Assembly: GCA_965243605.1 (NCBI GenBank)
Contig: CBDEVQ010000092.1
Coordinates: 48,208 to 112,207 of the forward strand
Direction of reading: 5' to 3'
Source of the DNA: Flavobacteriales bacterium
GTDB taxonomy: Bacteria; Bacteroidota; Bacteroidia; Flavobacteriales; CAJXXR01
DNA length: 64,000 nt
Position numbers and translations under genes: made by a program. Below are positions 1-24,034 of this stretch, piece after piece (within the stretch, counting starts at the first letter, position 1; every line of letters begins with the position of its first letter). The notes below the pieces were generated by a model, which worked only from the letters and a program-made list of their open reading frames with translations, was not told the DNA's origin and searched no databases.

Positions 1-3000
1 ATTCATCTGGAGTATTTACTGTAACCTTAAATATTACTGGGGATGCCTTATGTGGAAACGTATCCGATTCTACAACTATAGTAGATTACATTGAGGTTGG
101 AGAGTTAGAACCTCTAACACCTGTGAGTTGTAATACACCTTTTACATATAACAGTTCAGCAAAAGTAAATTATCTGAAATTAGGAGGTTTAGAGCATTAT
201 CCAAATATCAATCAAGCCCTTGTGGATTATACTTGTGCGAACGATATTAGCGTTCAAGTAGGTACAAAGATTCCATTTTACTTTACAGCCAATGGTTCTA
301 TTGATAAAATGAACATTTTTATTGATTATGATAATTCTGGAAGTTTTACCGAAAATGAAGAAGTATATAACGATTACTTATCTGGGGTTTCTGCATTCGA
401 TTCTATTGTTTTATTTACCAGTCAAACGGCAATAGAATATAATACACCATTAAGAATGCGTGTTATTTTATCCGAAAATGAAACGTCTGATGGGTGTAGT
501 CAAATAGGCGTAACTGGATCTTCTATTGGTCAACAATTAGATTATAGAATTACATTATTAGAAAATGAAAACCCACCAATTGCGGACCTTAGTTTTGTTG
601 ATTTAAGTCCTAATAATGGTGCTCAATTCACAATTAACGACACCATTCAATTTTTAGATATTTCTCAAAATTTACCAGAAAACTATTATTGGGAGTTTCC
701 AGGAGGAGAACCTTTAACAAGTACGGAGGAAAATCCTAAAGTTACCTATAGTAATCCAGGGTTTTATGGCGCAAATTTAAAGGTGGATAACAGTTTTGGT
801 GTAGATTCAATTGCCAAAACTCACCTTTTCCAAGTCACTAATAACATCAATATCTGTGAAACATCCAGTTCTAATGTAACGGCCGGAACGCTTTTTGACT
901 CTGGAGGACCATTATGGAACTATGATGATAATGAAAATTGTTCTTTTTTAATAGATCCAGGGTGTGCGGAATCAATTACATTATCGTTTTCTAGTTTCCA
1001 TACCAGAAACTATTACGATTATATTCGAGTATATGATGGAGCGGATAATACAGGAATATTAATCCTTGAACATTCTGGGGCAATCCTACCAGGTGATGCG
1101 ATTGCATTAAGTGGTAAAATGTATATTGAATTTACATCTGGACCTTATTATACAAACTATAGTGGTTGGGTAGCCAATTGGTACTCTACTGTACCTAGTA
1201 CGACACCTGTAGCTGATTTTACAACCATTGATACGATCTTTCCTTTAAATTATCCAATCCATTTTTCAGAATCGGCATCATCTCATATACAACTTATGGA
1301 TTGGGATTTTGGAGATGGAACAACCTCTCAAGAATTTAATCCGACCCATCAATATACGACTCAAGGTTTAAAAGAAATTACTTTGTCTGTTTATAATTGC
1401 TTTGAGTACGATACCATTACAAAGTATATTTACATTGACGCGTCGCCACAAATTGAAATTATTCAAGATACAATACAGGTTGATATTCATTGTGCAACAG
1501 ATACAACCGTTTCGTTTGACGTTACCAATACGGATGGGGGTGACTTGTATTTTGAAGCCCATTCCAATAATTCAATAACAGATACTTTAAGTGTTTTAAT
1601 ATTGGCAAATGGTATGAACCAGAGTTGCTTAGATACAATTGCAAGTTATGTTACAGAAAATATTGAAAAATCTCAAATAGAATTTAAAGTATGTTCTACA
1701 GCTGCAGAAATAGAGCTTGGTTTAGCAGATAAAGATCTTGTGATTTTACCGCGTATTTATATTAATGGCTCAGTTAAATCGGCATTAAGTTTAGAATTAA
1801 ATGAATTTGTGAACGATGGACGTCGTGTTTTAATGCTTGGTTCAGATTGGGATGATGTTATGCACTCAACGTCTACCTATTCTTATAGTAGTAATTCAGT
1901 AATTCCAGTAGTTATTAATGAACACCCCATCATAGATTCTATTCCAATTATTGGTGGAAATGGTTATAAGTATGCTAAAAACTTTACACACCCAGATTAT
2001 TTCTCAATATTAGAACATGAAGTGGTTTGGTACGCTGGTAAAGATTTAGTTGGAATTTTACCAAAAGGAGATGGAGAGGTTTATTATTTAGGATATGAAT
2101 ATAATTGCAATTTTTTTCCGAGCGCATCAGATTATGCTAAAACTATGTTTAATTCGACTATAAATTACATTTATAGAGAAGTTGTTCCTACATGGTTAAA
2201 TGTAGATGAACCTTATCAATTATTGGGACTAAATGATACAACAACAGTCTTTTTTGATATCAATACTGCTGGAATGTACGAAGGACATCACTTCGATTCT
2301 ATACAGGTTTATTCAAACGATTCGGCAAACCCAGTTACTCAAGTATTTGTGGATGTAAATATAGAATCCGCTTATGATTTACAAACGATTGACACCTTAA
2401 ATTTGGCATCAATATATCAATTTGGGACCGTGTCGGATAGTTTCGAGATATCGAATAACGCCTGTGAAACGATTGTGTTTGACTCCATAACCTTTGATCA
2501 TACCAATGTTACTATCTCACAATCTTCAGACAGTATATTAGGCTATGAAGAACATACTTTTGTTTTAACGTATTCTAGTGATTCGAGTGAGGTCATACAT
2601 GAACATATAAAATTTTATTACGATGGACAGGTTAAAGACATTTTAATACTGGCCGAATGTATACCAGCGGCTATTTTAACGTATTCACCACCAACAATTA
2701 TAGATTCGGTACAGCAATGTAATGACTCTGTTATTACAACCTTCACTCTATACAATTTAGGAGAAAACCCTTTGTCAGGAACTCTATTAAGAGAAGATTC
2801 TTTGTCTGTTTTTGAAGGTGCTGGTCTGAAATTCTTTGAAGGTTTCGAGTCAACATATACAAACCACTGGCTTCAAACAGCACCAAATACGTTTAACACC
2901 CTATTAGATCCTTCAATTAACTCGAACGTTCTTCATGTAAATTATCCAACCAATAGTAACCAAACCTTGTATAGGCCAATTGAAGAAAATGCAATTGACT

Positions 3001-6000
3001 ATATTGCTTTTACAATGAATAGAAGCTATTCTCAAGCAACAAATGCAAAGTTGAGTATTGGGTCTGGAGGAGCAACACCTACCGCTGGAATATGTGAAAT
3101 TCAATTTAGAAATGGACAAACGCGTTTTCGTTTTGGTGGAGGTAATTATAGAAATTATTATACGAATACCTCCATTTATTACCATGTAGAATTTAAGAAT
3201 ATCAACTACGAATTAAAAACATTCGATTTATATATAAACGAAAATCTTTTAGAATCTAATGTGTCATTTTTTGATGAATCCGTAGTCAATAATCAAATTG
3301 CTTTAGAATCAGGAACCACGTTAAGTTCATCTAGACGTTTGTATATAGATGATATTAAAGTGGGGAATTTTCAGAATTCATTTTGGATGAACTCAGTAGA
3401 TACCATACAGATTAATCCTGGTGACTCACAGCAAATAGAATTAACCTTACTATCGGAAGGGTTAAATGAAGGATGGTATAATGGATATATTAGCTTTAAT
3501 ACCAATGCGATTAATTTTGACGATAGTATAAACGTTCAGTTTAAAGTTACGGGAGATCCTGTTTTAGAAATTCCGAATCTTTGGAAAAGTTTAGAAAGTG
3601 TTCAACAATACGATACAAAACGAGATAGTGTTATTGTTTATAACACCGGATGTAGTGAATTAGAAATTACATCCATCGCCAATCTACGTTCAGAATATAC
3701 CCTTAGTTATAGTTCTAATTTGGTACCACCAGATGATAGTGCTTGGGTATATATAGATTTTGCACCGCTTACGGTTGATATATTTGAAGATACCATTACA
3801 GTTTATACGAATAACAATACCAGCTATTTTTATCTGACTGGAGAAAGTGATGGACTTGCCATTTTACATTTAGATGCTTATAATACGGTATTAACGGGGA
3901 GTGAATGTGATGGAGAACAATCTATAGAACTGGACATTCATAACTTGGGAAGTATACCATTACTTACTGAAATTAATAAAATCACCCGTTTTACGGATAA
4001 TTTTGAATCCAACATAATATCTTCATTTTGGGAATATTCAGATGGTATAGAAGTAGGAGCAGGATGTGGAACCATTGCTGGTCAAAATTCACTAATATTT
4101 AATGGTGGTGGTATTCGTGTTTTAGAATCTAAAACTATTAGAATTACGGAGGAAACGGTTTTTAGCTACAAGGTAAAATCTGGTGATGAAGAATGTAATA
4201 CACCGTCTGGTTCTATGTACTTTAAATTGTATTATTCTTTAGATAATGGAGTAAACTGGATTCTTCATCAACAGTTTTACCCGTATGCATCTTCTGTTAA
4301 TCCTGTTAATATAACTGAAACGTTTAGTGATGATATGCTAAACAAACCAATCCGATTTAAATTTGAACAAGATAACCATGACGGAAATCAAACGGATATT
4401 TGGATGTTGGATGATGTTCGTATTATAGATTATTCGAGTGCGTTAGGAGATATTTCGGTTTTACCAGGAGATTCTTTAAACTTTACAACATCTGTTAATT
4501 ATTCCGATTTTAGTAATGGATTGAATATATTAAAATACAGTTTGGAGTCTAATGACCCGATTAATCCAATACAAACTTATATATGTTCGTTATATGTTAA
4601 TGCACCACCATGTGCTAACTTTACACCAGAGCTATCTACACCATGTAGCGGAACAGTTAATATGAACGCCTTTTATAGAAATCTACCAAGTACGGTAACG
4701 TGGGAGTTTGGAGATGCATCAAACTCAATTGATACTTACCCTGTTCATGAATACGAGTCGAGTGGAACGCATACCATAACCATGTATGCTTGTAATGCCA
4801 ATGGGTGTGATACCATAGTGAAATCTATACAGGTATTAGAAATTATTGGAGCACGTAGTAATGCCTGTATTCCAACCGCAACTTTAACTGCTATTGGGGA
4901 TGTTGTAGAATTTAAACTGGGTAATATTTTTAATGAAACCACTTCTAATGGATTTAACCATGAAGATTTTACATGTACCGATACCACAACATTAATACCT
5001 GGTGCAGATTATAAATTCGAAATAAAAACCGCAAAGGCTTCAAACAAACATATTGCCATTTGGTTAGACCTTAATAATGATGGAACCTTCCAAGACAGTG
5101 AGTTGTTGTATGATAAACCTCAAATTACAACCCCTTTAGTAGATTCTATTTTTATTCCTATTACGGCCGAAAGAGAAAAGCCGCTTAGGTTAAGGGTAAT
5201 GAGCGATAGAAGGAATGCTCAGGTAACACCTTGTATGGGACTAGAGGCGCAATATGAAGATTATTCCGTTTACGTTAGTAATTCCAAAATTATTCCTGAA
5301 CCAAGGTTTTCATATGTTGAAACGGATTTGTGTTTAGGTACATTTGAATTTAATAACACCTCGTATTATACTCCAGACACCTATTATTGGAATTTTGGAG
5401 ATGGAACGTATTCTAATGAAGAAAATCCAATCCATACGTTTGGAGATCGAAAGCCATATAATGTAAGTTTAACGGTTGGAAATTCTGTTGGAAACAAAAC
5501 CTTAACTCAACAAATTACACCAAATAGACCAAGTAGCCAAGTTGAGGTAATTGCTAAGGATTTGTCCGTTAATAATCCAATCGTTTTTTCTGTAGATTCT
5601 TCGGAATTCACAGATGCTATATGGGATTTTAATACAGGTAATACGTATACAGGGTTACAAGTTTCTGTTAATCTTCCAATAGCTAAAGTATACCCATATA
5701 GCATACAACTTATGCATGTTACGGGTTGTGAACAATTGTATAAAGATACGTTTGATTTAAGTGTGGTTAACGAGACGTTTTTACCCTTATACCCAAATCC
5801 AAATTCGGGAACGTTTACAGTAGAGGCACCAATCAAAGATTATTATGTTTTTGACTCGATGGGGAATGAAGTGTATAGATTTATTGGAGATACGTACATT
5901 TCCAATCAAATTGTACGCTTAAATCATTTAGCGGATGGTCAATATATCATAAAAGCAAAATTAGAGAACCAACAAACCCGAATGGCTAAAATAACCATAA

Positions 6001-6008
6001 TTAAGTAG
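1..6008 (+). CDS. Giant multidomain secreted protein, 5'-truncated by the window edge (PKD repeats, CUB-like module, two GEVED-like modules, T9SS C-terminal sorting domain)
   Basis: The frame of ORF 123..6008 stays open back to base 3 (SSGVFTVTLNITGDALCGNVSDSTTIVDYIEV, which looks like the end of a PKD module). The GTG at 123 is therefore not the true start. Four W(D/E/N)FGDG..NP.H.Y PKD signatures are present. There is a CUB-like block, TAGTLFDSGGP...YIRVYDGADNTG. Two GEVED-like ends are present (QQLDYRITL; AQYEDYSVYV). The C-terminus is LYPNPNSGTFTV...GQYIIKAKL...KITIIK. Confidence 0.9.
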   Translation, partial: SSGVFTVTLNITGDALCGNVSDSTTIVDYIEVGELEPLTPVSCNTPFTYNSSAKVNYLKLGGLEHYPNINQALVDYTCANDISVQVGTKIPFYFTANGSIDKMNIFIDYDNSGSFTENEEVYNDYLSGVSAFDSIVLFTSQTAIEYNTPLRMRVILSENETSDGCSQIGVTGSSIGQQLDYRITLLENENPPIADLSFVDLSPNNGAQFTINDTIQFLDISQNLPENYYWEFPGGEPLTSTEENPKVTYSNPGFYGANLKVDNSFGVDSIAKTHLFQVTNNINICETSSSNVTAGTLFDSGGPLWNYDDNENCSFLIDPGCAESITLSFSSFHTRNYYDYIRVYDGADNTGILILEHSGAILPGDAIALSGKMYIEFTSGPYYTNYSGWVANWYSTVPSTTPVADFTTIDTIFPLNYPIHFSESASSHIQLMDWDFGDGTTSQEFNPTHQYTTQGLKEITLSVYNCFEYDTITKYIYIDASPQIEIIQDTIQVDIHCATDTTVSFDVTNTDGGDLYFEAHSNNSITDTLSVLILANGMNQSCLDTIASYVTENIEKSQIEFKVCSTAAEIELGLADKDLVILPRIYINGSVKSALSLELNEFVNDGRRVLMLGSDWDDVMHSTSTYSYSSNSVIPVVINEHPIIDSIPIIGGNGYKYAKNFTHPDYFSILEHEVVWYAGKDLVGILPKGDGEVYYLGYEYNCNFFPSASDYAKTMFNSTINYIYREVVPTWLNVDEPYQLLGLNDTTTVFFDINTAGMYEGHHFDSIQVYSNDSANPVTQVFVDVNIESAYDLQTIDTLNLASIYQFGTVSDSFEISNNACETIVFDSITFDHTNVTISQSSDSILGYEEHTFVLTYSSDSSEVIHEHIKFYYDGQVKDILILAECIPAAILTYSPPTIIDSVQQCNDSVITTFTLYNLGENPLSGTLLREDSLSVFEGAGLKFFEGFESTYTNHWLQTAPNTFNTLLDPSINSNVLHVNYPTNSNQTLYRPIEENAIDYIAFTMNRSYSQATNAKLSIGSGGATPTAGICEIQFRNGQTRFRFGGGNYRNYYTNTSIYYHVEFKNINYELKTFDLYINENLLESNVSFFDESVVNNQIALESGTTLSSSRRLYIDDIKVGNFQNSFWMNSVDTIQINPGDSQQIELTLLSEGLNEGWYNGYISFNTNAINFDDSINVQFKVTGDPVLEIPNLWKSLESVQQYDTKRDSVIVYNTGCSELEITSIANLRSEYTLSYSSNLVPPDDSAWVYIDFAPLTVDIFEDTITVYTNNNTSYFYLTGESDGLAILHLDAYNTVLTGSECDGEQSIELDIHNLGSIPLLTEINKITRFTDNFESNIISSFWEYSDGIEVGAGCGTIAGQNSLIFNGGGIRVLESKTIRITEETVFSYKVKSGDEECNTPSGSMYFKLYYSLDNGVNWILHQQFYPYASSVNPVNITETFSDDMLNKPIRFKFEQDNHDGNQTDIWMLDDVRIIDYSSALGDISVLPGDSLNFTTSVNYSDFSNGLNILKYSLESNDPINPIQTYICSLYVNAPPCANFTPELSTPCSGTVNMNAFYRNLPSTVTWEFGDASNSIDTYPVHEYESSGTHTITMYACNANGCDTIVKSIQVLEIIGARSNACIPTATLTAIGDVVEFKLGNIFNETTSNGFNHEDFTCTDTTTLIPGADYKFEIKTAKASNKHIAIWLDLNNDGTFQDSELLYDKPQITTPLVDSIFIPITAEREKPLRLRVMSDRRNAQVTPCMGLEAQYEDYSVYVSNSKIIPEPRFSYVETDLCLGTFEFNNTSYYTPDTYYWNFGDGTYSNEENPIHTFGDRKPYNVSLTVGNSVGNKTLTQQITPNRPSSQVEVIAKDLSVNNPIVFSVDSSEFTDAIWDFNTGNTYTGLQVSVNLPIAKVYPYSIQLMHVTGCEQLYKDTFDLSVVNETFLPLYPNPNSGTFTVEAPIKDYYVFDSMGNEVYRFIGDTYISNQIVRLNHLADGQYIIKAKLENQQTRMAKITIIK

Positions 6009-6065
6009 GTTATTGCCTAAGGAATACGCTTAATAACGTTAGATATATTTCTAACAAATTAATTA

Positions 6066-6104
6066 TAGACCAGCTACCAATAGGGAGCTGGTCTATTTTG
6101 TTTT
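6066..6104 (+). terminator. Rho-independent terminator after the giant gene
   Basis: TAGACCAGCT-accaataggg-AGCTGGTCTA gives a 10-bp perfect stem, followed by TTTTGTTTT, 58 nt after the stop at 6008. Confidence 0.75.
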
Positions 6105-6407
6105 ACTTGGGTAGATGTTGCATATAATTTACGTTGTGTTTTGTATTAATTACTTAGTAGTTAAGTATGTGTGTTTATTACATCGATCTGTTTATTAAGC
6201 GTGTTAATCGAATAATAACAACCAATAGTCCAAAAATGTATAGATCATAGATGGCTAATAATATCTTTGAAACAGTGAGAATAATTAGCTAAATTATTCT
6301 TCTAAAATTTTATTAAGTAAATATTATAGCCAGAGTGCATTATTGCTTCTATGGCAGCTATTATACCTGTATTTCTATTTTAATTCAGTGCTTTAAGACG
6401 ATCTGAA

Positions 6408-6524
6408 TTAAGCGGCAATGTAAAATCCGGAGAAATAAATCTTTCAAACTTCCCAAGTGGACTGTATAGCATTCAATTTAAAGATGCCACTATGGTTAGA
6501 TCTATAAAATTTGTATTAAATTAA
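6408..6524 (+). pseudogene. Orphan 3' fragment of an array gene (last ~38 codons of the alpha-type CTD plus stop) at the left edge of the array
   Basis: It reads LSGNVKSGEINLSNFPSGLYSIQFKDATMVRSIKFVLN*. The canonical 17-nt spacer ttaacaattagagcgtt and the A1 ATG follow. No upstream coding part and no start codon are present. Confidence 0.85.
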
Positions 6525-6541
6525 TTAACAATTAGAGCGTT

Positions 6542-8461
6542 ATGAGAATACTAACCATATTAAGTTATTTATTTTATTTATGTATTAGTTTGAATGGGAA
6601 TAGCCAAACCATCACGGTTCAGAATTTAGACGATTCAGGAATAGGTTCTCTGCGTAATGCTATTTCTAATGCCAATTCAGGCGATACCATACGTTTTAAT
6701 CCCATGTTAATTGCTCAAGGGAGTGATACTTTGGTACTAGATACAGTAATAAATATTGATAAAGATTTGGTAATAAATGGACTTTATGATAGCGAGGATA
6801 CCTTGTTTTTGTCTTCTAAAACAAATAGAAGTATATTCTTTGTTGATTCTGTAGATAATATATTGCTTGATAGCCTTTGTTTGTTAGCAGATACAAGTGA
6901 TAATATTGACCCCTATATCACTTATTTTGTTTATTCAAATGTATTAGTTTCAAATTGTTTTTTTAAAGGGTACACCAAAATTATTTTACATACTTGGCAG
7001 TCAAATTTGACCATTGTTGGTTCGATGGTTTTGGGATTACATTCTCCACAATCATTTCCTAAAATAAGTTATGCAACGCAAGGTGATATTTTTAGAGAAT
7101 GTAATATAACGAATTCGGTGTTTAAGTTAGAAAATTCAAATAGCACAGGTTTCTATATAGAAACTGGAGGTAATAAGATAAATAACAACATACATATAGA
7201 AAATTCTTACTTTTCAAATTTCAAAACACTAATTTATGGTCTTAATACTGTAAATGTTGTAAAGAATACATTTAATAATTCTTTGATTAAGACAGGTGAA
7301 CCCAATAGAGGTTTTTATACCAGAAATATTGCATTAACTGTAAAAGCTTCAACCTTTACTATTACAGATAGTAACAGAGTACAAAATACAATTTTAAGCA
7401 TAGGAACGCCTTACGGACCTATTGAGCCAATTCCACTAGATACTATTAAGTTAAATTTTACAAATTGTACATTTAATGGAGGTCTTTATGAAGATACTCT
7501 TTATGGGAGCTTTACTGATAGTAATTATTTGGATTACTTCGGTCCAGACTTAGATGAGCTAAAAATAACAAGTTGTATTTTTAATGATATTAACGGATTT
7601 AACGAATTGCCTATAGACTCTTCAGGAGGATATAATCTATTTAGTTTTCCTCAAAATATTGGCTTAGATTCAACAGACCAAACCAATGTTCTGGTGTCTG
7701 ATATTAACTTGGGACCCTTACAAAACAATGGAGGGTATACACCTACACATCTACCAAACTACCAATCTTTAGCGTTTAATTCGGGTAATCCGAACGATAC
7801 AAGCTCAGCCCAAAACGGAGCCATCATACAACGCCGAGATATTGGGTCAGCAGAAATACAAGCTGTCCTAACCATAGACACAACAGAGCATTGCGGTACA
7901 TCCTATAATTGGCGAGCAGACACCCTTACCGAAACAGATATTCATTTTGATTTTGAAGAATCTACTACAGGAGGGCACGATAGTGTTTTTGCTTTAGATT
8001 TAACCTTAGATTACATGGATGCTCTAGCTATTAGCGATGGTGGAGCCTTACAAGCCAATATCACTGATGCAAGCTATCAATGGATAGATTGTTCAACCCA
8101 TTTACCATTGTTTGGCGAAACCAACCAAACCCTTACACCCAATATAGCGGGAACCTATGCCGTTGTTGTTTCCAATGGAATTTGTACCGATACTTCGGCC
8201 TGTGTATTTATCGATAATTTGAGTGTAGAAGAGCATAACCCAAACCTTCCTCTTATTAGAGTAACCAACCAAACCATATTCTTTAATCCAAGCAATTCTC
8301 TATTATCCCATTATATAATTTACAATAGTCAAGGACAATCCGTTGTAAGCGGCAACGTAAAATCTGGAGAAATAAACCTTTCAAACTTCCCAAGTGGACT
8401 GTATAGCATTCAATTTAAAGATGCCACTATGGTTAGATCTATAAAATTTGTATTAAATTAA
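6542..8461 (+). CDS. Array copy A1: T9SS-targeted right-handed beta-helix family protein (signal a, core class I, hybrid CTD)
   Basis: 639 aa. Signal peptide MRILTILSYLFYLCISLNGNSQ. N-cap TITVQNLDDSGIGSLRNAISNANSGDTIRFNP (CSLREA-like). C-cap LGPLQNNGGYTPTHL...QRRDIGSAEIQ (choice-of-anchor-Q-like). The first half of the CTD is unique (HNPNLPLIRVTNQTIFF...); the second half is alpha type. The core is unique apart from a tail shared with A6 (PLDT(I/L)KLNFTNCTFNGGLYEDTLYG). Confidence 0.9.
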   Translation: MRILTILSYLFYLCISLNGNSQTITVQNLDDSGIGSLRNAISNANSGDTIRFNPMLIAQGSDTLVLDTVINIDKDLVINGLYDSEDTLFLSSKTNRSIFFVDSVDNILLDSLCLLADTSDNIDPYITYFVYSNVLVSNCFFKGYTKIILHTWQSNLTIVGSMVLGLHSPQSFPKISYATQGDIFRECNITNSVFKLENSNSTGFYIETGGNKINNNIHIENSYFSNFKTLIYGLNTVNVVKNTFNNSLIKTGEPNRGFYTRNIALTVKASTFTITDSNRVQNTILSIGTPYGPIEPIPLDTIKLNFTNCTFNGGLYEDTLYGSFTDSNYLDYFGPDLDELKITSCIFNDINGFNELPIDSSGGYNLFSFPQNIGLDSTDQTNVLVSDINLGPLQNNGGYTPTHLPNYQSLAFNSGNPNDTSSAQNGAIIQRRDIGSAEIQAVLTIDTTEHCGTSYNWRADTLTETDIHFDFEESTTGGHDSVFALDLTLDYMDALAISDGGALQANITDASYQWIDCSTHLPLFGETNQTLTPNIAGTYAVVVSNGICTDTSACVFIDNLSVEEHNPNLPLIRVTNQTIFFNPSNSLLSHYIIYNSQGQSVVSGNVKSGEINLSNFPSGLYSIQFKDATMVRSIKFVLN

Positions 8462-8478
8462 TTAACAATTAGAGCGTT

Positions 8479-10371
8479 ATGAGAATACTAACCATATTAA
8501 GTTATTTATTTTGTTTATGTATTAGTTTGAATGGGAATAGCCAAACTATAACTGTTCAGAATTTAGACGATTCAGGGATTGGTTCTCTGCGTGATGCTAT
8601 TTCTAATGCCAATTCAGGCGATACCATACGTTTTAATCCAATGTTACTATCACAAGGGAGTGATACCTTGGTGTTAGATACAGTAATTAATATTGATAAA
8701 GATTTAGTGATAAAAGGGCTTTATGATGATGAGGATACGTTGTTTTTGTCTGTGTCAGACAATCAGTCATTCTTCCTTGTTGATACTGTTGAAAGTTTTA
8801 CGCTTGATAGTGTTGTTTTAATATCGTCAATAAATAATACTCCAAGTACATGGATTATAGTTTTTGAATCATTAATTAATATAGATAATTCTATTTTTAG
8901 AGGAGCTAAAAGTACTGTATTGATGTTATCAGAATCTCCATTTATAATACAAAATAGTTTTTTTTCTATAAACAATTTTCTAGTTTTTGGAGGAACACCC
9001 AATATTATTACTTGCGGATTTAATACAGATAAATTAAGGACAATAAGAATAGAATCTACTATATTTCAGGTTATTGGTGCTTCAAATGGACTTGATGTGA
9101 GATTTACAAGTAATCAGGATAGTAATAATGTAATAATTAGGAATTGTTATCTTAATAATTTTAGGAGTTTGTTATTTGGCCATTTTCGTGTAGAAATAAT
9201 AAATAGTACTTTTAATAACTCTCCTTTTGATATTGGTCACCCAATGATATCAGGGGGTATTCCTGAAAGAAATGCTTTTATTTTGGCTAACACTTCGACT
9301 TTTTCTTTAACTGATATTGGATATTTACAAAACCCTATCTCTTGTATAGGTTCACCAACAAACCCTTTTGATCCACCTCCTTCAGATATATTTGAATTAC
9401 AATTTAATAATTGCACTTTCAATGGAGGAACTTATGACAGCAATTCCTATGAAGATTACTTCGGTCCAGACTTAGATGAGCTAAAAATAACAAGTTGTAT
9501 TTTTAATGATATTAACGGATTTAACGAATTGCCTATAGACTCATCAGGAGGCTATAACTTATTTAGTTTTCCTCAAAGCATAGGTTTAGATTCAACAGAC
9601 CAAACCAATGTTCTGGTGTCTGATGTCAACTTAGGACCATTACAAAACAACGGAGGGTTTACACCAATACATCTACCAAACTACCAATCTTTAGCGTTTA
9701 ATTCGGGTAATCCGAACGATACAAGCTCTGCTCAAAATGGAGCCATTATACAACGCCGAGATATTGGGGCAGCAGAAATACAAGCTGTCCTAACCATAGA
9801 CACAACAGAGTATTGCGGTACATCCTATAATTGGCGAGCAGACACCCTTACTGAAACAGATATTCATTTTGATATTGAAGAGTCTACCAATGGTGGATAC
9901 GATAGTGTTTTTGCTTTAGATTTAACCTTAGATTACATGGATGCTCTAGCCATTAGCGATGGTGGAGCCTTACAAGCCAATATTTCTGATGCAACATACC
10001 AATGGATGGATTGTTCAACCCATTTACCATTGTTTGGCGAAACCAACCAAACCTTTACACCCAGTATAGCGGGAACCTATGCGGTTGTTGTTTCCAATGG
10101 AATTTGTACCGATACTTCGGCCTGTGTATTTATCGATAATTTGAGTGTAGAAGAGCAGGTGCAATCCTTTGTATTTGTAAAGAATCATGTTTTGTATTTT
10201 AACGGGTTAGAAAATGCAGAGTTTAACATCTATAATAGCCTTGGGCAGAATATTTTAAGCGGCAATGTAAAATCCGGAGAAATAGACCTTTCAAACTTCC
10301 CAAGTGGACTGTATAGCATTCAATTTAAAGATGCCACTATGGTTAGATCTATAAAATTTGTATTAAATTAA
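8479..10371 (+). CDS. Array copy A2 (signal a, core class II, CTD alpha)
   Basis: 630 aa with the same architecture. The core is homologous to B4 (both begin LSVSDNQSFFLVDTVESFTLDS). The last ~305 aa are identical to A3. Confidence 0.9.
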   Translation: MRILTILSYLFCLCISLNGNSQTITVQNLDDSGIGSLRDAISNANSGDTIRFNPMLLSQGSDTLVLDTVINIDKDLVIKGLYDDEDTLFLSVSDNQSFFLVDTVESFTLDSVVLISSINNTPSTWIIVFESLINIDNSIFRGAKSTVLMLSESPFIIQNSFFSINNFLVFGGTPNIITCGFNTDKLRTIRIESTIFQVIGASNGLDVRFTSNQDSNNVIIRNCYLNNFRSLLFGHFRVEIINSTFNNSPFDIGHPMISGGIPERNAFILANTSTFSLTDIGYLQNPISCIGSPTNPFDPPPSDIFELQFNNCTFNGGTYDSNSYEDYFGPDLDELKITSCIFNDINGFNELPIDSSGGYNLFSFPQSIGLDSTDQTNVLVSDVNLGPLQNNGGFTPIHLPNYQSLAFNSGNPNDTSSAQNGAIIQRRDIGAAEIQAVLTIDTTEYCGTSYNWRADTLTETDIHFDIEESTNGGYDSVFALDLTLDYMDALAISDGGALQANISDATYQWMDCSTHLPLFGETNQTFTPSIAGTYAVVVSNGICTDTSACVFIDNLSVEEQVQSFVFVKNHVLYFNGLENAEFNIYNSLGQNILSGNVKSGEIDLSNFPSGLYSIQFKDATMVRSIKFVLN

Positions 10372-10388
10372 TTAACAATTAGAGCGTT

Positions 10389-12269
10389 ATGAGAATACTA
10401 ACCATATTAAGTTATTTATTTTGTTTATGTATTAGTTTGAATGGGAATAGCCAAACTATAACTGTTCAGAATTTAGACGATTCTGGGGTTGGCTCTTTAC
10501 GTGATGCTATTTCTAATGCCAATTCAGGTGATACCATCCGTTTTAATCCAATGTTACTATCACAAGGGAGTGATACCTTGGTGTTAGATACAGTAATTAA
10601 TATTGATAAAGATTTAGTGATAAAAGGGCTTTATGATGATGAGGATACGTTGTTTTTGTCTTCTTTGGAGAATAGACGTTTGTTCCATTTTGATACAGTA
10701 GATTATGTACTACTTGATAGCCTGTTTTTTGTGGCAGATACAAGTAATGATGCTGATGATTATGTAATTACTTTTCTACATTCAGAGGGTTTTATTTCAA
10801 ATTCTTTTTTTAAGGGATATAATAAAAATGTTTTAGTTTCTTGGCAATCATCTTTGAATCTTTATGGGTGTTTTTTAAACAATGATATAAATACTAATGC
10901 ATCTATTGTCTTTTTGTCAAATGGAGATAATCTTTGCATTTTGAACATTACGTCTACATATATACAAAATAACGGTGTTGGATATGATTTTGATATAAGA
11001 TTAGCAGGAAATAAAAATAATAATCACATTATTATAGAAGATTCGTACTTTAAAAATTCTAAAAGTTTATATTTCGGTCATTTATTTACCGAAATAAGGC
11101 GTAGTACGTTTGAAAATTCAACAATTGATATTGGTCATGAATCTGTTATTGGTGGAACGAGCGAAAGAGACATTACATTGAATGTCATGAGCTCTACATT
11201 TTCTATTTCTGATTCTACAGATAATAAAAATAGTATATCTTGTATAGGTACACCTTATGGACCAATAGAATCTCCTCCTTTAGATTTTTTTCAGTTACAA
11301 TTTAAAAATTGCACATTTAGCGGAGGTGTATATGATAGTGCTTCATACGAAGATTATTTCGGCCCCGATTTAGATGAACTAAAAATAACAAGTTGCATAT
11401 TCAATGATATTAACGGATTTAACGAATTGCCTATAGACTCATCAGGAGGCTATAACTTATTTAGTTTTCCTCAAAGCATAGGTTTAGATTCAACAGACCA
11501 AACCAATGTTCTGGTGTCTGATGTCAACTTAGGACCATTACAAAACAACGGAGGGTTTACACCAATACATCTACCAAACTACCAATCTTTAGCGTTTAAT
11601 TCGGGTAATCCGAACGATACAAGCTCTGCTCAAAATGGAGCCATTATACAACGCCGAGATATTGGGGCAGCAGAAATACAAGCTGTCCTAACCATAGACA
11701 CAACAGAGTATTGCGGTACATCCTATAATTGGCGAGCAGACACCCTTACTGAAACAGATATTCATTTTGATATTGAAGAGTCTACCAATGGTGGATACGA
11801 TAGTGTTTTTGCTTTAGATTTAACCTTAGATTACATGGATGCTCTAGCCATTAGCGATGGTGGAGCCTTACAAGCCAATATTTCTGATGCAACATACCAA
11901 TGGATGGATTGTTCAACCCATTTACCATTGTTTGGCGAAACCAACCAAACCTTTACACCCAGTATAGCGGGAACCTATGCGGTTGTTGTTTCCAATGGAA
12001 TTTGTACCGATACTTCGGCCTGTGTATTTATCGATAATTTGAGTGTAGAAGAGCAGGTGCAATCCTTTGTATTTGTAAAGAATCATGTTTTGTATTTTAA
12101 CGGGTTAGAAAATGCAGAGTTTAACATCTATAATAGCCTTGGGCAGAATATTTTAAGCGGCAATGTAAAATCCGGAGAAATAGACCTTTCAAACTTCCCA
12201 AGTGGACTGTATAGCATTCAATTTAAAGATGCCACTATGGTTAGATCTATAAAATTTGTATTAAATTAA
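10389..12269 (+). CDS. Array copy A3 (signal a, core class III, CTD alpha)
   Basis: 626 aa. The core is homologous to B5 (SSLENR..F..DTVDY.LLDSL...IRLAGNKNNN). The C-terminal half is identical to A2. Confidence 0.9.
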   Translation: MRILTILSYLFCLCISLNGNSQTITVQNLDDSGVGSLRDAISNANSGDTIRFNPMLLSQGSDTLVLDTVINIDKDLVIKGLYDDEDTLFLSSLENRRLFHFDTVDYVLLDSLFFVADTSNDADDYVITFLHSEGFISNSFFKGYNKNVLVSWQSSLNLYGCFLNNDINTNASIVFLSNGDNLCILNITSTYIQNNGVGYDFDIRLAGNKNNNHIIIEDSYFKNSKSLYFGHLFTEIRRSTFENSTIDIGHESVIGGTSERDITLNVMSSTFSISDSTDNKNSISCIGTPYGPIESPPLDFFQLQFKNCTFSGGVYDSASYEDYFGPDLDELKITSCIFNDINGFNELPIDSSGGYNLFSFPQSIGLDSTDQTNVLVSDVNLGPLQNNGGFTPIHLPNYQSLAFNSGNPNDTSSAQNGAIIQRRDIGAAEIQAVLTIDTTEYCGTSYNWRADTLTETDIHFDIEESTNGGYDSVFALDLTLDYMDALAISDGGALQANISDATYQWMDCSTHLPLFGETNQTFTPSIAGTYAVVVSNGICTDTSACVFIDNLSVEEQVQSFVFVKNHVLYFNGLENAEFNIYNSLGQNILSGNVKSGEIDLSNFPSGLYSIQFKDATMVRSIKFVLN

Positions 12270-12286
12270 TTAACAATTAGAGCGTT

Positions 12287-14182
12287 ATGAGAATACTAAC
12301 CATATTAAGTTATTTATTTTGTTTATGTATTAGTTTGAATGGGAATAGCCAAACCATCACGGTTCAGAATTTAGACGATTCTGGGGTTGGCTCTTTACGT
12401 GATGCTATTTCTAATGCCAATTCAGGTGATACCATCCGTTTTAACCCTATGTTACTTTCACAGGGAAGTGATACTTTAGTATTAGATACAGTGATTAATA
12501 TTGATAAAGATTTAGTGATAAAAGGGCTTTATGATAGCGAGGATACCTTGTTTTTAACTACAGGAGACAATCAATCATTTTTTTATATTGATTCAGTAGA
12601 AAATCTAATTATTGATAATTTGGTATTTATATTTGATTCTATATTTTTAATTAGTAATCATGATTTTATAAATGCGCGGAATTCAAAAGTAAAATTATCA
12701 AATTCAATATTTAGAGGGAATAGAGATGAAATTTTGTCTTTTTGGCAATCTTCATTAGAAATATTGAATTGTAAATTCAATATTAAAATGACTGAACAAT
12801 ATAGTTCATTAATAGTTTATTTGACAAATGGCGAAAGTTATAGAGAATTTAAGATAATAAACTCTTTATTAAAATTAAATGGTGAAATATTAGGGAATAG
12901 TATTGATATAAGACTTAAGGGAAATAAAAATAATAATCATTTTATCATAGAAAATTCATACTTTAAAAATTCTAAAAGTTTATATTTCGGTCATTTAATA
13001 ATAAATATCAATCAATGTACATTCGAAAATTCACCTATTGATATTGGGCATGGACTTATGGGAGGTGTTACAACTGAAAGAGATATTACATTGAATGCAA
13101 TGAGTTCGACATTTTCTATTTCTGATTCGACAGATAACCAAAATAGTATCTCTTGTATAGGTACACCTTATGGACCAATAGAATCTCCTCCTTTAGATTT
13201 TTTTCAGTTACAATTTAAAAATTGCACATTTAGCGGAGGTGTATATGATAGTGCTTCATACGAAGATTATTTCGGTCCCGATTTAGATGAACTAAAAATA
13301 ACAAGTTGTATTTTTAATGATATTAATGGCTTTAATGAATTACCTATTGACTCTTCAGGTGGATATAACTTATTTAGTTTTCCTCAAAGCATAGGATTAG
13401 ATTCAACAGACCAAGCTAATGTTCTGGTGTCTGATATTAACTTGGGGCCCTTACAAAACAATGGAGGGTATACACCTACACATCTACCAAACTACCAATC
13501 TTTAGCGTTTAATTCGGGTAATCCGAACGACACAAGCTTTGCCCAAAACGGAACCATCATACAACGCCGAGATATAGGAGCTGCAGAAATACAAGCTGTC
13601 CTAACCATAGACACAACAGACTATTGCGGTACATTCTATAATTGGCGAGCAGACACCCTTACCGAAACAGATATTCATTTTGATATTGAAGAATCTACTA
13701 CAGGAGGGTACGATAGTGTTTTTGCCATAGATTTAACCTTAGATTATATTGATGCTATAGCCATAAGTGATGGAGGCGAATTAACAGCCAATAGTTCTGA
13801 TGCGACCTACCAATGGATGGATTGTTCAACCCATTTACCATTGTTTGGTGAAACTAACCAAACCCTTACACCCAGTATAGCGGGAACCTATGCGGTTGTT
13901 GTTTCCAATGGAATTTGTACCGATACTTCGGCCTGTGTATTTATCGATAATTTGAGTGTAGAAGAGCAGGTGCAATCCTTTGTATTTGTAAAGAATCATG
14001 TTTTGTATTTTAACGGGTTAGAAAATGCAGAGTTTAACATCTATAATAGCCTTGGGCAGAATATTTTAAGCGGCAATGTAAAATCCGGAGAAATAGACCT
14101 TTCAAACTTCCCAAGTGGACTGTATAGCATTCAATTTAAAAATGCCACTATGGTTAGATCTATAAAATTTGTATTAAATTAA
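12287..14182 (+). CDS. Array copy A4 (signal a, chimeric core IV/III, CTD alpha)
   Basis: 631 aa. The first part of the core resembles A5/B1 (RNSKVKLSNSIFRGNRDEILSFWQSSLEILNCKF). The second part resembles A3 (NKNNNHFIIENSYFKNSKSLYFGH...SSTFSISDSTDNQNSISCIGTPYGPIESPPLDFFQLQFKNCTFSGGVYDSASYE). Confidence 0.9.
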   Translation: MRILTILSYLFCLCISLNGNSQTITVQNLDDSGVGSLRDAISNANSGDTIRFNPMLLSQGSDTLVLDTVINIDKDLVIKGLYDSEDTLFLTTGDNQSFFYIDSVENLIIDNLVFIFDSIFLISNHDFINARNSKVKLSNSIFRGNRDEILSFWQSSLEILNCKFNIKMTEQYSSLIVYLTNGESYREFKIINSLLKLNGEILGNSIDIRLKGNKNNNHFIIENSYFKNSKSLYFGHLIININQCTFENSPIDIGHGLMGGVTTERDITLNAMSSTFSISDSTDNQNSISCIGTPYGPIESPPLDFFQLQFKNCTFSGGVYDSASYEDYFGPDLDELKITSCIFNDINGFNELPIDSSGGYNLFSFPQSIGLDSTDQANVLVSDINLGPLQNNGGYTPTHLPNYQSLAFNSGNPNDTSFAQNGTIIQRRDIGAAEIQAVLTIDTTDYCGTFYNWRADTLTETDIHFDIEESTTGGYDSVFAIDLTLDYIDAIAISDGGELTANSSDATYQWMDCSTHLPLFGETNQTLTPSIAGTYAVVVSNGICTDTSACVFIDNLSVEEQVQSFVFVKNHVLYFNGLENAEFNIYNSLGQNILSGNVKSGEIDLSNFPSGLYSIQFKNATMVRSIKFVLN

Positions 14183-14199
14183 TTAACAATTAGAGCGTT

Positions 14200-16113
14200 A
14201 TGAGAATACTAACCATAATAAGTTATTTATTTTATTTATGTATTAGTTTGAATGGGAATAGCCAAACCATCACGGTTCAGAATTTAGACGATTCTGGGGT
14301 TGGTTCTTTACGCGATGCTATTTCTAATGCCAATTCAGGCGATACCATCCGTTTTAACCCTATGTTAATTGCTCAAGGGAGTGATACTTTAGTATTAGAT
14401 ACAGTAATAAGTATTGACAAAGATTTAGTGATAAAAGGGCTTTATGATAGCGAGGATACCTTGTTTATGTCTGCATTAGATAATCAGAATTTGTTTTTCA
14501 TAGATAGTGTTGAAAGTATGGTTATGGATAGTTTAGTTTATCATATTGGCTTAATAAATACTTTTACAAGTTCCGATTTATTTCGGGTGCGTAATTCAAA
14601 CGTTCAAATATATAATTCAATATTTTTGGGGCATAGAGATGAAGTATTATCTTTTTGGCAATCGTCTTTAGAAATTTCAAATTGTAAGTTTATTAGTTTA
14701 GAGAGTTTATATTCGAGTTCTATTATTATATTTTCAACGAATGGGGATGTGCCAAGAGAGCTTAGGGTTATTAATTCTGAATTTGAATTTAATAATACTC
14801 TCACTTCTAAAGTTATTATTAGAACTGGTGGTGATAAAAGTAATAATCTTATTTATTTTAAAAACGCCTATTTTTCTAATATCAAGACTTTGATTTATGG
14901 CCACAATACTATTGATATTTCTAATTGTACTTATGAAAATGCTCATATACAAACAGGTGAACCTTCAGTTGGGTTTGCATTTATTAGAGATATTACATTA
15001 ACTGCAAAATCATCAACTTTTACTATTACTGACACTAATCAAGTCCAAAATACAATTTTATGTATAGGAACACCTTATGGACCTATTGAACCTGTTCCTT
15101 TAGATGTCCTTGAGTTAAATTTAATAAATAGTACGTTTAATGGTGGAATTTACGAAGACGTTATTTATGGAACTGGTTATGATAGTAATTATTTGGATTA
15201 CTTCGGTCCCGATTTAGATGAACTAAAAATAACAAGTTGTATTTTTAATGATATTAATGGCTTTAATGAATTACCTATTGACTCTTCAGGTGGATATAAC
15301 TTATTTAGTTTTCCTCAAAGCATAGGATTAGATTCAACAGACCAAGCTAATGTTCTGGTGTCTGATATTAACTTGGGGCCCTTACAAAACAATGGAGGGT
15401 ATACACCTACACATCTACCAAACTACCAATCTTTAGCGTTTAATTCGGGTAATCCGAACGACACAAGCTTTGCCCAAAACGGAACCATCATACAACGCCG
15501 AGATATAGGAGCTGCAGAAATACAAGCTGTCCTAACCATAGACACAACAGACTATTGCGGTACATTCTATAATTGGCGAGCAGACACCCTTACCGAAACA
15601 GATATTCATTTTGATATTGAAGAATCTACTACAGGAGGGTACGATAGTGTTTTTGCCATAGATTTAACCTTAGATTATATTGATGCTCTAGCCATAAGTG
15701 ATGGAGGCGAATTAACAGCCAATAGTTCTGATGCGACCTACCAATGGATGGATTGTTCAACCCATTTACCATTGTTTGGTGAAACTAACCAAACCCTTAC
15801 ACCCAGTATAGCGGGAACCTATGCGGTTGTTGTTTCCAATGGAATTTGTACCGATACTTCGGCCTGTGTATTTATCGATAATTTGAGTGTAGAAGAGCAG
15901 GTGCAATCCTTTGTATTTGTAAAGAATCATGTTTTGTATTTTAACGGGTTAGAAAATGCAGAGTTTAACATCTATAATAGCCTTGGGCAGAATATTTTAA
16001 GCGGCAATGTAAAATCCGGAGAAATAAACCTTTCAAACTTCCCAAATGGACTGTATAGCATTCAATTTAAAAATGCCACTATGGTTAGATCTATAAAATT
16101 TGTATTAAATTAA
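14200..16113 (+). CDS. Array copy A5 (signal a, core class IV, CTD alpha)
   Basis: 637 aa. The core is homologous to B1/B3. The C-terminal ~305 aa differ from A4 at only ~3 residues. Confidence 0.9.
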   Translation: MRILTIISYLFYLCISLNGNSQTITVQNLDDSGVGSLRDAISNANSGDTIRFNPMLIAQGSDTLVLDTVISIDKDLVIKGLYDSEDTLFMSALDNQNLFFIDSVESMVMDSLVYHIGLINTFTSSDLFRVRNSNVQIYNSIFLGHRDEVLSFWQSSLEISNCKFISLESLYSSSIIIFSTNGDVPRELRVINSEFEFNNTLTSKVIIRTGGDKSNNLIYFKNAYFSNIKTLIYGHNTIDISNCTYENAHIQTGEPSVGFAFIRDITLTAKSSTFTITDTNQVQNTILCIGTPYGPIEPVPLDVLELNLINSTFNGGIYEDVIYGTGYDSNYLDYFGPDLDELKITSCIFNDINGFNELPIDSSGGYNLFSFPQSIGLDSTDQANVLVSDINLGPLQNNGGYTPTHLPNYQSLAFNSGNPNDTSFAQNGTIIQRRDIGAAEIQAVLTIDTTDYCGTFYNWRADTLTETDIHFDIEESTTGGYDSVFAIDLTLDYIDALAISDGGELTANSSDATYQWMDCSTHLPLFGETNQTLTPSIAGTYAVVVSNGICTDTSACVFIDNLSVEEQVQSFVFVKNHVLYFNGLENAEFNIYNSLGQNILSGNVKSGEINLSNFPNGLYSIQFKNATMVRSIKFVLN

Positions 16114-16126
16114 TAATTAAAACGTT

Positions 16127-18040
16127 ATGAGAATACTAACCATATTAAGTTATTTATTTTGTTTAGGTATTAGTTTTAATGGGAATAGCCAAACCATCAC
16201 GGTTCAGAATTTAGACGATTCTGGGGTTGGCTCTTTACGTGATGCTATTTCTAATGCCAATTCAGGCGATACCATCCGTTTTAATCCCATGTTAATTGCT
16301 CAAGGGAGTGATACTTTAGTATTAGATACAGTAATAAGTATTGACAAAGATTTAGTGATAAAAGGGATTTATGATAGCGAGGATACCTTGTTTTTGACTT
16401 GTATTAATAATCAAATGTTTTTTTTAATTGAAAGTATTGAGCTTTCAATGGATAGTATGATTTTTACATCTGCGTATTATAATTATTCAAATACATATTT
16501 TCTATATTTAAGAAACTCTGAAGTAAATATTTTAAATTCAAAATTCTTAGATTTTTCAGAAACGGTTCTATCTTCAGAACAATCGAATTTAACTATTAAT
16601 AATAGTTCATTTTTTTGTGACAGCTTATATTCACATTATCCTTTGGTATACCTAACTCAAGGTGATACGTTAAGAAAACTAAAAATTATAAAGTCAAAGT
16701 TTTTAATAAAGGAAAAGAATACAGTTGGTATAGTAGTTAGAACAGCTGGAAATAAGGAGAATAATAAGGTGATTATTCAAGATTCATATTTTGAAAATTT
16801 TGAAACATTAATATATGGTCATAACACCATAGATATTCAATATTCAACATTTAATAATTCACTAATTAAAACGGGAGAGCCTTATGTGGGGTTTGCATAT
16901 ATTAGAGATATTACATTAACTGTAAAATCTTCAACCTTTGCAATTACAGATTCTAATCAAGTTCAAAATACGATTTTATGTATTGGTACACCTTATGGAC
17001 CTATTGAGCCAGTTCCTTTAGATACTCTGAAGTTAAATTTTACAAATTGTACGTTTAATGGAGGTCTTTATGAAGATACTCTTTATGGGAACTTTACTGA
17101 TAGTAATTATTTGGATTATTTCGGCCCCGATTTAGATGAACTAAAAATAACAAGTTGTATTTTCAATGATATTAACGGATTTAACGAATTGCCTATTGAC
17201 TCTTCAGGTGGATATAACTTATTTAGTTTTCCTCAAAGCATAGGATTAGATTCAACTGACCAAGCTAATGTTCTGGTGTCTGATATTAATTTGGGGCCCT
17301 TACAAAACAATGGAGGGTATACACCTACACATCTACCAAACTACCAATCTTTAGCGTTTAATTCGGGTAATCCTAACGATACCATTTCTGCTCAAAATGG
17401 AGCCATTATACAACGTAGAGATATTGGATCAGCTGAAATACAAGCTATACTTACTGTAGATACTACTGAATATTGTGGCGAATTTTATGATTGGAGAGGG
17501 CAAATGTTAACCGAATCAGCTATCTATTCAGATATAGAAGTATCTACAACAGGATTAGATAGTGTTTTTGCCATAGATTTAACCTTAGAGTATTTAGATG
17601 CCCTAGCCATAAGTGATGGAGGCGAATTAACAGCCAATAGTTCTGATGCGACATACCAATGGATGGATTGTTCAACCTATTTACCATTGTTTGGCGAAAC
17701 CAACCAAACCCTTACACCCAGTATTGCGGGAACCTATGCGGTTGTTGTTTCCAACGGAATTTGTACCGATACTTCGGCCTGTGTATTTATCGATAATTTG
17801 AGTGTAGAAGAGCAAGAAGAATATTATGTTTTTATAAAAGATAATGTACTTCATCTTAATGGGATTAGTAGTATCAAAATAGATTATATTATTTATAACA
17901 GTTTAGGACAAAAGGTACTTCACTCAAATACCTCACAAGAAAAACAAGACCTCTCTTATTTAGAGTCAGGTGTCTATTATATTAGATTAATATCTGATAA
18001 AGTGAATGATAAAAAGTATAATAAATTTATTATTAAATAA
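16127..18040 (+). CDS. Array copy A6, last gene of block A (signal a, core class V, CTD gamma)
   Basis: 637 aa. The core segment TQGDTLRKLKIIKSKFLIKEKNTVGIVVRTAGNKENNKVIIQDSYFENFETLIYGHNT is shared with B6. The CTD ...DLSYLESGVYYIRLISDKVNDKKYNKFIIK differs from alpha and resembles the CTD of the 18529..23949 gene. Confidence 0.9.
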   Translation: MRILTILSYLFCLGISFNGNSQTITVQNLDDSGVGSLRDAISNANSGDTIRFNPMLIAQGSDTLVLDTVISIDKDLVIKGIYDSEDTLFLTCINNQMFFLIESIELSMDSMIFTSAYYNYSNTYFLYLRNSEVNILNSKFLDFSETVLSSEQSNLTINNSSFFCDSLYSHYPLVYLTQGDTLRKLKIIKSKFLIKEKNTVGIVVRTAGNKENNKVIIQDSYFENFETLIYGHNTIDIQYSTFNNSLIKTGEPYVGFAYIRDITLTVKSSTFAITDSNQVQNTILCIGTPYGPIEPVPLDTLKLNFTNCTFNGGLYEDTLYGNFTDSNYLDYFGPDLDELKITSCIFNDINGFNELPIDSSGGYNLFSFPQSIGLDSTDQANVLVSDINLGPLQNNGGYTPTHLPNYQSLAFNSGNPNDTISAQNGAIIQRRDIGSAEIQAILTVDTTEYCGEFYDWRGQMLTESAIYSDIEVSTTGLDSVFAIDLTLEYLDALAISDGGELTANSSDATYQWMDCSTYLPLFGETNQTLTPSIAGTYAVVVSNGICTDTSACVFIDNLSVEEQEEYYVFIKDNVLHLNGISSIKIDYIIYNSLGQKVLHSNTSQEKQDLSYLESGVYYIRLISDKVNDKKYNKFIIK

Positions 18041-23949: not shown

Positions 23950-23963
23950 AATGTGATTAACTT

Positions 23964-24010
23964 GTAAGCCCAAGGTGTTTAAAACCTTGGGCTTACCTAT
24001 TTATTTATAA
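23964..24010 (+). terminator. Rho-independent terminator after the 1806-aa gene
   Basis: GTAAGCCCAAGGT-gtttaaa-ACCTTGGGCTTAC gives a 13-bp perfect stem, followed by ctatttatttat. Confidence 0.75.
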
Positions 24011-24034
24011 AAATTATATTAAAAAGTAAACGCT

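Follow-up and report, generated by a model that had tools for sequence, protein, structure and literature searches.

A relic half sorting domain at the left boundary of a concertedly evolving array of T9SS cargo genes

The locus and its two gene arrays

The window, by which we mean the whole 64,000-nt stretch of DNA that was analysed, opens with a gene on the plus strand for an M4-peptidase/PKD/CUB protein with a T9SS sorting domain, of which the 3' 5.9 kb lie within the window (123..6008). It is followed on the same strand by six paralogous genes of ~630 aa each (A1-A6, 6542..18040), by the gene for a DUF4832 protein of 1806 aa (18529..23949) that separates the A array from the B array, and by six further paralogs (B1-B6, 24035..35588), downstream of which lie Rrf2, ScdA and NorB. 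All 12 paralogs are complete genes, each encoding a signal-peptide head, a choice-of-anchor Q domain and a T9SS type A sorting domain at the C-terminus (CTD). Several CTD types can be distinguished among them: alpha in A2-A5, B2, B3 and B5, beta in B1 and B4, gamma in A6, delta in B6, and a hybrid in A1. We refer to the first and second halves of the alpha CTD as alpha1 and alpha2, and to the divergent first half of the A1 CTD as epsilon1. A1 is the first complete member of the array (6542..8461, plus strand, 639 aa) and is built of an MRILT signal-peptide head, a variable core, the choice-of-anchor Q domain and the hybrid CTD. The gene family is rare in protein databases: 17 close members (at least 56% identity) were found among 5.8 billion protein clusters, and 12 of these 17 come from the window's own contig. 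Two family members, P0013 and P0017, are encoded on one 298-kb ENA contig.

A half sorting domain upstream of A1

The 533 nt that separate the peptidase gene from A1 (6009..6541) hold a stub of 117 nt (6408..6524, plus strand) that corresponds to the alpha2 half of a T9SS type A sorting domain together with its stop codon, but has neither a start codon nor a first half. Its translation in one frame reads LSGNVKSGEINLSNFPSGLYSIQFKDATMVRSIKFVLN, followed by the stop. An in-frame TAA lies eight codons 5' of the stub (6381-6383), ATG, GTG and TTG are absent between this TAA and the stub, and no plus-strand ORF of at least 20 aa covers 6408..6524. Of the 72 positions of the TIGR04183 model, the stub peptide covers 39-71, the second half of the sorting domain, and when it is compared with the whole profile (TIGR04183 / PF18962) it stays below the threshold, at 18.5 bits versus a cut-off of 23, whereas the full alpha CTD (32.3 bits on TIGR04183) and the hybrid CTD of A1 (35.5 bits) both exceed it. 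Nor does the stub form the C-terminus of a translated protein with an N-terminal signal peptide, given the upstream stop, the missing start and an internal TGA in the copy of a related genome (see below). The stub is thus an untranslatable relic at the left boundary of the array.

Between the stub and A1 lies the canonical 17-nt spacer TTAACAATTAGAGCGTT (6525..6541, plus strand), which has the same letters at six internal spacers and is conserved at 17 of 17 positions in the related genome. A blastn search with 6408..6560, that is, with the stub, the spacer and the start of A1, returned four internal junctions at 98.7% identity over 153 nt (10255, 12153, 29683 and 33541; E 4.8e-58) and three further ones at 93-98%. 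The original prediction had described a start-less 117-bp copy of the alpha tail with the 17-nt spacer directly 5' of A1, to be compared with the other CTD-spacer junctions, and the ORF, blastn, spacer and TIGR04183 results bear out that description.

One relative can be examined at the stub boundary, an independently assembled metagenome contig from sample ERZ928181 (L029). It carries an ortholog of the peptidase (P0029, about 92% identical; 91.5% at the nucleotide level) and is collinear with the window from the 3' end of the peptidase gene through the intergenic sequence, the stub and the spacer into A1' (721/805 identities, 90%), which is orthologous to A1 by its variable core. The stub of L029 (18124..18240) occupies the same place, with the same left flank and the same left edge as the stub of the window, from which it differs at 11 of 117 positions (90.6% identity), including a GGA to TGA change in frame. 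Since the same stub with the same edge is found in L029, it is older than the separation of the two lineages and does not stem from an assembly artefact. Near-identical repeat arrays are generally prone to misassembly, and the stub might have been suspected to be a mis-joined repeat end, but the recurrence of the stub, its flanks and its spacer in an independent assembly from another sample refutes this idea, to which we attach next to no credence. A full gene without a breakpoint at this position in related genomes would have spoken against the original prediction; L029 has the same fragment with the same edge and no full gene. We rejected the argument that the uninterrupted contig (k=127) through the L029 stub proves that no other alpha2 copies exist there, since a stub that has decayed has no exact 127-mer in common with live copies.

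Upstream of the stub, two features are conserved in L029. The first is a hairpin with a 10-bp stem and a 10-nt loop, followed by the T-run TTTTGTTTT (6066..6095, plus strand), which emerged as an inverted repeat in a self-blastn comparison and is likely, judging from its sequence, the intrinsic terminator of the M4 peptidase/PKD gene; a consensus terminator scanner missed it because of the 10-nt loop. The second is a non-coding stretch of 157 nt on the plus strand (6251..6407) that contains a Bacteroidetes-type -7 motif, TATCTTTG (TAnnTTTG), at 6262..6269, itself conserved in L029. This stretch is the best-conserved part of the intergenic region, with 94.3% identity to L029, compared with 84% for 6101..6250 and likewise 84% for 4-fold sites within the final 1 kb of the peptidase gene. 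No -7-type motif is present within 200 nt of any internal gene start in the arrays. Going by the motif match, 6251..6407 is a candidate promoter or leader of A1 or of the A array, and the stub may simply lie within the leader of an A1-A6 transcript.

A more specific proposal is that the stub acts in cis, the upstream tail and spacer carrying leader, translation-initiation or promoter signals for the next gene, such that A1 would need the stub, which would then be more than neutral debris. The perfect conservation of the spacer between the genomes and across junctions is consistent with this proposal, as is the conserved 157-nt stretch, whose TAnnTTTG motif has no counterpart near internal gene starts and which suggests one leader that contains the stub. 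However, the conservation of the stub itself (90.6%) is indistinguishable from that of the local 4-fold sites (84%), and the sole promoter-like element inside it, AAAATTTG, reads TCTG in L029. Moreover, an Rfam search gave no credible match, and a scan for sigma-70 promoters and terminators revealed no enrichment of such sites, although such a scan is of little use for Bacteroidota. We therefore regard a cis-acting role as very unlikely.

Junction modules in the window and in related loci

The stub is the outermost copy of a module that recurs throughout the arrays and consists of alpha2, a spacer of 17 nt (or 13 nt) and the MRILT signal-peptide head of the next gene. In the window, this module occurs at 8 of the 10 internal junctions and at the stub, nine copies in total, and the five loci of relatives that were examined yielded a single copy, the stub itself. 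The first internal copy of alpha2 with its 17-nt spacer is that of A1 (8346..8478), followed by those at 10255..10388 (A2 to A3), 12153..12286, 14066..14199, 29683..29816 and 33541..33674; alpha2 is followed by a 13-nt spacer at 15997..16126 and 27756..27885, all on the plus strand. A second module joins beta2 over 40 nt to an MTRVIKS head, and a third joins the tail of the DUF4832 gene over 85 nt to an MKYLN head. The 13-nt spacer variant, TAATTAAAACGTT, is found at 16114..16126 (A5/A6) and at 27873..27885 (B2/B3), in both cases linked to an alpha2 haplotype of three substitutions, and this common spacer and haplotype are evidence that the two arrays have exchanged sequence over the intervening DUF4832 gene.

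Along each gene, identity between the paralogs forms a mosaic. Conserved ends of ~200 nt (5') and ~900 nt (3') enclose a hypervariable core (45-85% identity), and a nearest-paralog map reveals that the closest relative of a gene changes along its length. There are 30 blocks of exact identity of at least 150 nt, with starts scattered over the 3' half of the gene (e.g. at nt 985, 1027, 1469, 1577 and 1710), and these blocks run through the CTD and the spacer to end 34-158 nt into the next gene. The stub takes part in this pattern: 6441..6636, comprising stub, spacer and A1 head, is identical over 196 nt to the B3/B4 junction (29716..29911), 23 kb away. In the homogenised parts, paralogs resemble each other more than they resemble their orthologs, the conserved 3' half of A1' being 90-99% identical to A2' and B' of its own genome versus 83% to its ortholog A1, and the stub of the window being 98.7% identical to in-genome tails versus 90.6% to its positional ortholog in L029. 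With paralogs closer than orthologs and with mosaic tracts that change partners, the tandem family evolves in concert, as a mosaic of identity blocks. The same comparisons indicate that sequence has probably been exchanged recently between the stub and the array, in either direction. Since the divergence of the stub from its ortholog (9.4%) is not clearly different from that of the local 4-fold sites (16%), the argument for conversion draws mainly on within-genome identity.

The original prediction had proposed a repeating or converting unit that runs from mid-CTD to mid-CTD. For the array as a whole, this phase of repetition or conversion does not hold, because the starts of the identity blocks are scattered and the alpha CTD of seven genes continues uninterrupted across the point equivalent to 6408. 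The proposal fits the hybrid tail of A1, and that tail only.

Related loci place the stub in time. A second contig from sample ERZ928181 (L025) opens with a CTD second half, after which come an 85-nt spacer, a single A-type gene (A2') with a gamma tail, the DUF4832 gene, a single B gene with a delta tail and Rrf2; its gamma tail is the ortholog of the A6 tail and its delta tail the ortholog of the B6 tail. That L029 and L025 belong together is inferred from their common sample, from gene order and from the reading frame, with L029 ending 26 nt before the homolog of the A1 join described below. Together, they bring the assembled family genes of the closest relative to 2+1, a lower bound in view of the gap between the two contigs, compared with 6+6 in the window. 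Two other loci (L026 and L027) have the DUF4832 gene with a single B copy, and another (L028) has the DUF4832 gene with a single copy in a different context. In a more distant relative (L030, 44% aa identity), the peptidase gene is followed 4 nt later by FUR and then by Rrf2, ScdA and NorB (16240..17209), the A/DUF4832/B block of ~29.6 kb being absent, which implies that the whole block is an insertion in the lineage of the window. A remnant of FUR was found neither in 6009..6407 nor elsewhere in the window.

Since the stub is older than the expansion specific to the window, it is not the footprint of that expansion, and the suggestion that it might be the footprint of the founding duplication is not supported; a simple duplication leaves no orphan. 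The other half of that suggestion, that a former upstream copy was deleted, survives as one inferred origin, namely the deletion of a former leftmost member.

Searches with the C-terminus of the peptidase retrieved only PKD-domain relatives (26-72% identity) and no ortholog from genome contigs, and no ortholog from metagenome contigs. Exact-protein look-ups with A1 and the peptidase of the window, and with P0013 and P0017, found no record. An exact 24-nt alpha2 pattern had no match in metagenome contigs, and an exhaustive HMMER search returned no alpha-type CTD of more than 52% identity anywhere; no external source of alpha2 is known.

Three further observations concern the related loci. The ends of L029 (19950..20031) and L025 (1..200) lie 26 nt apart within the same CTD, and L025 begins at the very base that is homologous to the A1 join (GTAAG). 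That the contigs break at the join could reflect a repeat, a strain polymorphism that interrupted the assembly, or coincidence. In the opening of L025 (1..196), the tail, the head and the 85-nt spacer between them, which contains a hairpin, match the junction of DUF4832 tail, spacer and B head (window 23850..24034; L025 7800..7979) at 79-83% nucleotide identity. This opening is therefore a paralog of the third module and a second instance of a duplicated unit that begins within the second half of a CTD, which implies that a unit of CTD second half, spacer and next gene has been duplicated more than once at this locus. Repeated duplication of such units supports the mid-CTD idea in spirit, though no fixed phase follows from it for the array as it stands. 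Finally, the Rrf2-ScdA-NorB segment (window 35648..39252) is 96-97% identical at the nucleotide level to that of the relatives L025 and L026, the peptidase gene 91.5% and the DUF4832 gene 88.5%. Divergence is thus strongly heterogeneous across the locus, and this may reflect recombination between lineages.

Coinciding breakpoints and the origin of the stub

A likelihood change-point analysis placed the edge of stub homology at 6408 (support 6408-6409), with 24% identity to alpha tails on the left and 97-98% on the right. The same analysis placed the switch in the A1 tail at 8346 (support 8343-8349 against A5, up to 8379 against A2), with 56% identity on the left and 97% on the right. The stub edge and the A1 switch therefore fall on the same point of the CTD within 1 nt, in agreement with the breakpoint that had been predicted for both. 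At variance with that prediction, the A1 sequence before the switch is not unique but a divergent, homologous first half of a CTD, with which the hybrid as a whole attains the TIGR04183 score given above. This epsilon1 island of 110 nt (8236..8345, plus strand) has array-consensus sequence on both sides: the first mismatch of A1 to the alpha genes is at 8236, and identity over the 300 nt upstream is 94%. G8345 and C8350 of A1 confine the join to the 4-nt TAAG, which is common to alpha2 (TTAAGC), A1 (GTAAGC) and the tail of the relative (GTAAGT); A1 keeps G8345, as in the GTAAGT that opens L025, and follows alpha2 from C8350. For two random breakpoints in a CTD of 230 nt, the chance of falling within 3 nt of each other is ~3%, by our reckoning, and the coincidence is thus unlikely to be fortuitous. 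No special affinity ties the stub to A1, since it differs from the alpha2 of A1 at three sites, compared with two for the haplotype of A2, A3, B3 and B5.

How could two breakpoints come to coincide? We favour, at roughly even odds (about 0.5), a scenario in which the outermost junction module was truncated and left the stub as its relic, which continues to trade sequence with live junctions and gave rise to the coinciding A1 join. Before the lineages split, a former leftmost member would have lost its body and the first half of its CTD, or else an inserted block would have lost its end; since a simple tandem duplication leaves no orphan, one has to assume a deletion or a truncated insertion as well. 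Having kept its junction module, the stub could then have recombined non-allelically with live junctions, which would have kept the stub of the window fresh, the stub of L029 having drifted to the point of carrying a TGA. Position 6408 would be the last base of array homology, and an unequal exchange or one-sided conversion with the stub module could join the first half of A1 to alpha2 only at, or to the right of, the 6408-equivalent point. Such an exchange would have made the epsilon1|alpha2 tail of A1, joined within the 4-nt microhomology TAAG. Because the homology of the array ends at 6408, the A1 join would fall there as well and the two breakpoints would coincide. That epsilon1 is an island flanked by consensus speaks for the stub as the partner, since the island would have been overwritten had the donor been a full alpha copy with its anchor in the gene body. 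Against this partner stands that the L029 sequence stops before the second half of A1'. Furthermore, alpha1 is not present upstream of the stub and cannot derive from it, and a full alpha CTD must therefore have existed independently.

The epsilon1|alpha2 join of A1 also has the form expected of the novel join of a tandem duplication if the unit was 6408..8345, the sequence of L029 ending 26 nt short of the homologous point. The stub itself, being present in L029, is ruled out as such a novel join.

It is conceivable that the truncation of the stub and the A1 join are separate events that both struck a favoured site, after the YNxLGQ motif at TAAG, either because unlike CTD types have their best in-register microhomology there or because only swaps at a sub-domain boundary give a working sorting signal. 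The 20 nt that encode YNxLGQ are the best-conserved stretch among all CTD types, TAAG is common to alpha2, A1 and the tail of the relative, a second half appears to have been grafted again in the opening of L025 with its likeness to the DUF4832 tail, spacer and B head, and the hybrid CTD is a valid match to TIGR04183. However, the sequence to the left of the stub is not a CTD, and a hotspot of homology therefore cannot explain the edge of the stub. In addition, the A1 join lies 7 nt past the conserved motif rather than inside it, and the ~3% chance estimated above weighs against two unconnected events. We consider such independent events unlikely.

Alternatively, both breakpoints could descend from one hybrid tail. 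The lost leftmost gene would have been a tandem duplicate of A1 that already combined a non-alpha first half with alpha2; the step at 6408 would have been inherited and the truncation itself would lie 15-25 nt further upstream. If so, remnants of a first half should still be discernible to the left of 6408, and some comparisons hint at them. In an anchored ungapped comparison, 9 of the 15 positions upstream of 6408 match non-alpha first halves (8-9/15 for epsilon, gamma and delta; p ~0.03), whereas only 4/15, and 7/30 over the longer stretch, match alpha1. Within this interval, TTAAGACGA (6393..6401) resembles TTAGGACAA (LGQ) in register, gapped blastn to the A1 tail extends 5' to 6358, and an anchored global alignment gave p ~0.003, albeit with lengths chosen post hoc. 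Yet the anchored comparison loses its significance when 30-60 nt are taken, the 120 nt 5' of the stub align locally no better than by chance (p 0.6), and the nhmmer alignment of the family starts only at 6404. A tblastn search for other remnants of the family (gene body, variable core) in 6009..6407 and in other intergenic regions found none. Tested in four ways, a continuation of the stub as a decayed first half is marginal at best and would amount to a weak hint. Moreover, as alpha2 was still essentially intact when the lineages split, a divergence of ~45% would be unexpected for a remnant of equal age, unless alpha2 alone had been refreshed by conversion. A common descent from one hybrid tail thus appears quite unlikely.

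Returning to the relic of a truncated junction module, such a remnant is of an ordinary sort. Tandem arrays that evolve in concert by unequal crossing-over and gene conversion leave truncated relics of paralogs at their edges. The locus resembles them in its partial, non-coding boundary copy, in the in-genome copies that are closer than orthologs, in its mosaic blocks and in a copy number that varies between close relatives. It differs from the usual case in that the homogenised unit is centred on the junction, composed of half a secretion signal, a spacer and the next signal peptide, whereas the cores are hypervariable, and in that the edge of the relic matches a hybrid join in a neighbouring live gene. 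Silent, promoterless partial cassettes also serve antigenic variation, as in pilS of Neisseria, vls of Borrelia and the msp2 pseudogenes of Anaplasma. Like these cassettes, the stub is a start-less truncated copy beside expressed paralogs with which it probably engages in gene conversion; unlike them, it is a conserved tail without variable sequence, next to 12 complete genes rather than one expression site. A silent donor cassette supplies variable sequence that is copied to an expression site, and the stub, with its conserved CTD half only, has none to offer.

A parallel in terms of secretion is found in Porphyromonas gingivalis, where domain rearrangement and gene conversion have been described among the T9SS cargo genes kgp, rgpA and hagA (PMC5266723). 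There as here, paralogs for T9SS surface proteins with a conserved C-terminal domain recombine in modules and diversify in this way. In P. gingivalis, the adhesin domains of dispersed genes are exchanged and the CTD stays whole (PMC5266723), whereas the genes studied here form a tandem array that exchanges junction modules, with a CTD that is itself divided into two interchangeable halves. No relic half-CTD is mentioned in the passages of that article that were consulted (PMC5266723).

The stub is thus an ordinary by-product of gene-array evolution that calls for no new mechanism. It is nevertheless a dated landmark of the growth of the array, older than the split from a relative with 2+1 assembled family genes, and it makes visible that the homogenised part of the repeat is the junction and not the gene. 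The A1 tail, in turn, illustrates that a T9SS sorting domain made of halves of different ancestry still scores as valid on the profile. For annotation, the stub serves as a warning that an "intergenic" region of 533 nt can hold a pseudogene fragment, and CTD-based gene calls and short-read assemblies will break at it.

The array, with its hypervariable cores, homogenised junctions and 12 copies compared with three assembled in the closest relative, is more interesting than the stub. One could go further and propose that the tail-spacer-head junction is a selected, portable recombination handle that shuffles and amplifies the hypervariable cores among the secreted choice-of-anchor Q proteins of this bacterium, with CTD halves that are freely exchangeable and with the stub as a permanent left anchor or template that seeded the alpha junctions of the 12-gene expansion; we would call this a long shot. 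With regard to the cores themselves (6800..7600 in the window and the equivalents in all 12 paralogs), which lie between homogenised ends, those of B1 and B3 are identical over ~1 kb (24179..25143 and 28030..28994) and those of A6 and B6 are 96-100% identical. Such distant sharing of cores looks like a cassette-like shuffling among T9SS cargo genes. Lastly, the intergenic region between A6 and the DUF4832 gene contains 2.5 tandem copies of a 116-nt unit at 95% identity (18098..18387), with related copies at the equivalent place in the relative (L025, about 2150..2400); among the candidates for its nature are regulatory elements, small RNAs and REP-like elements.
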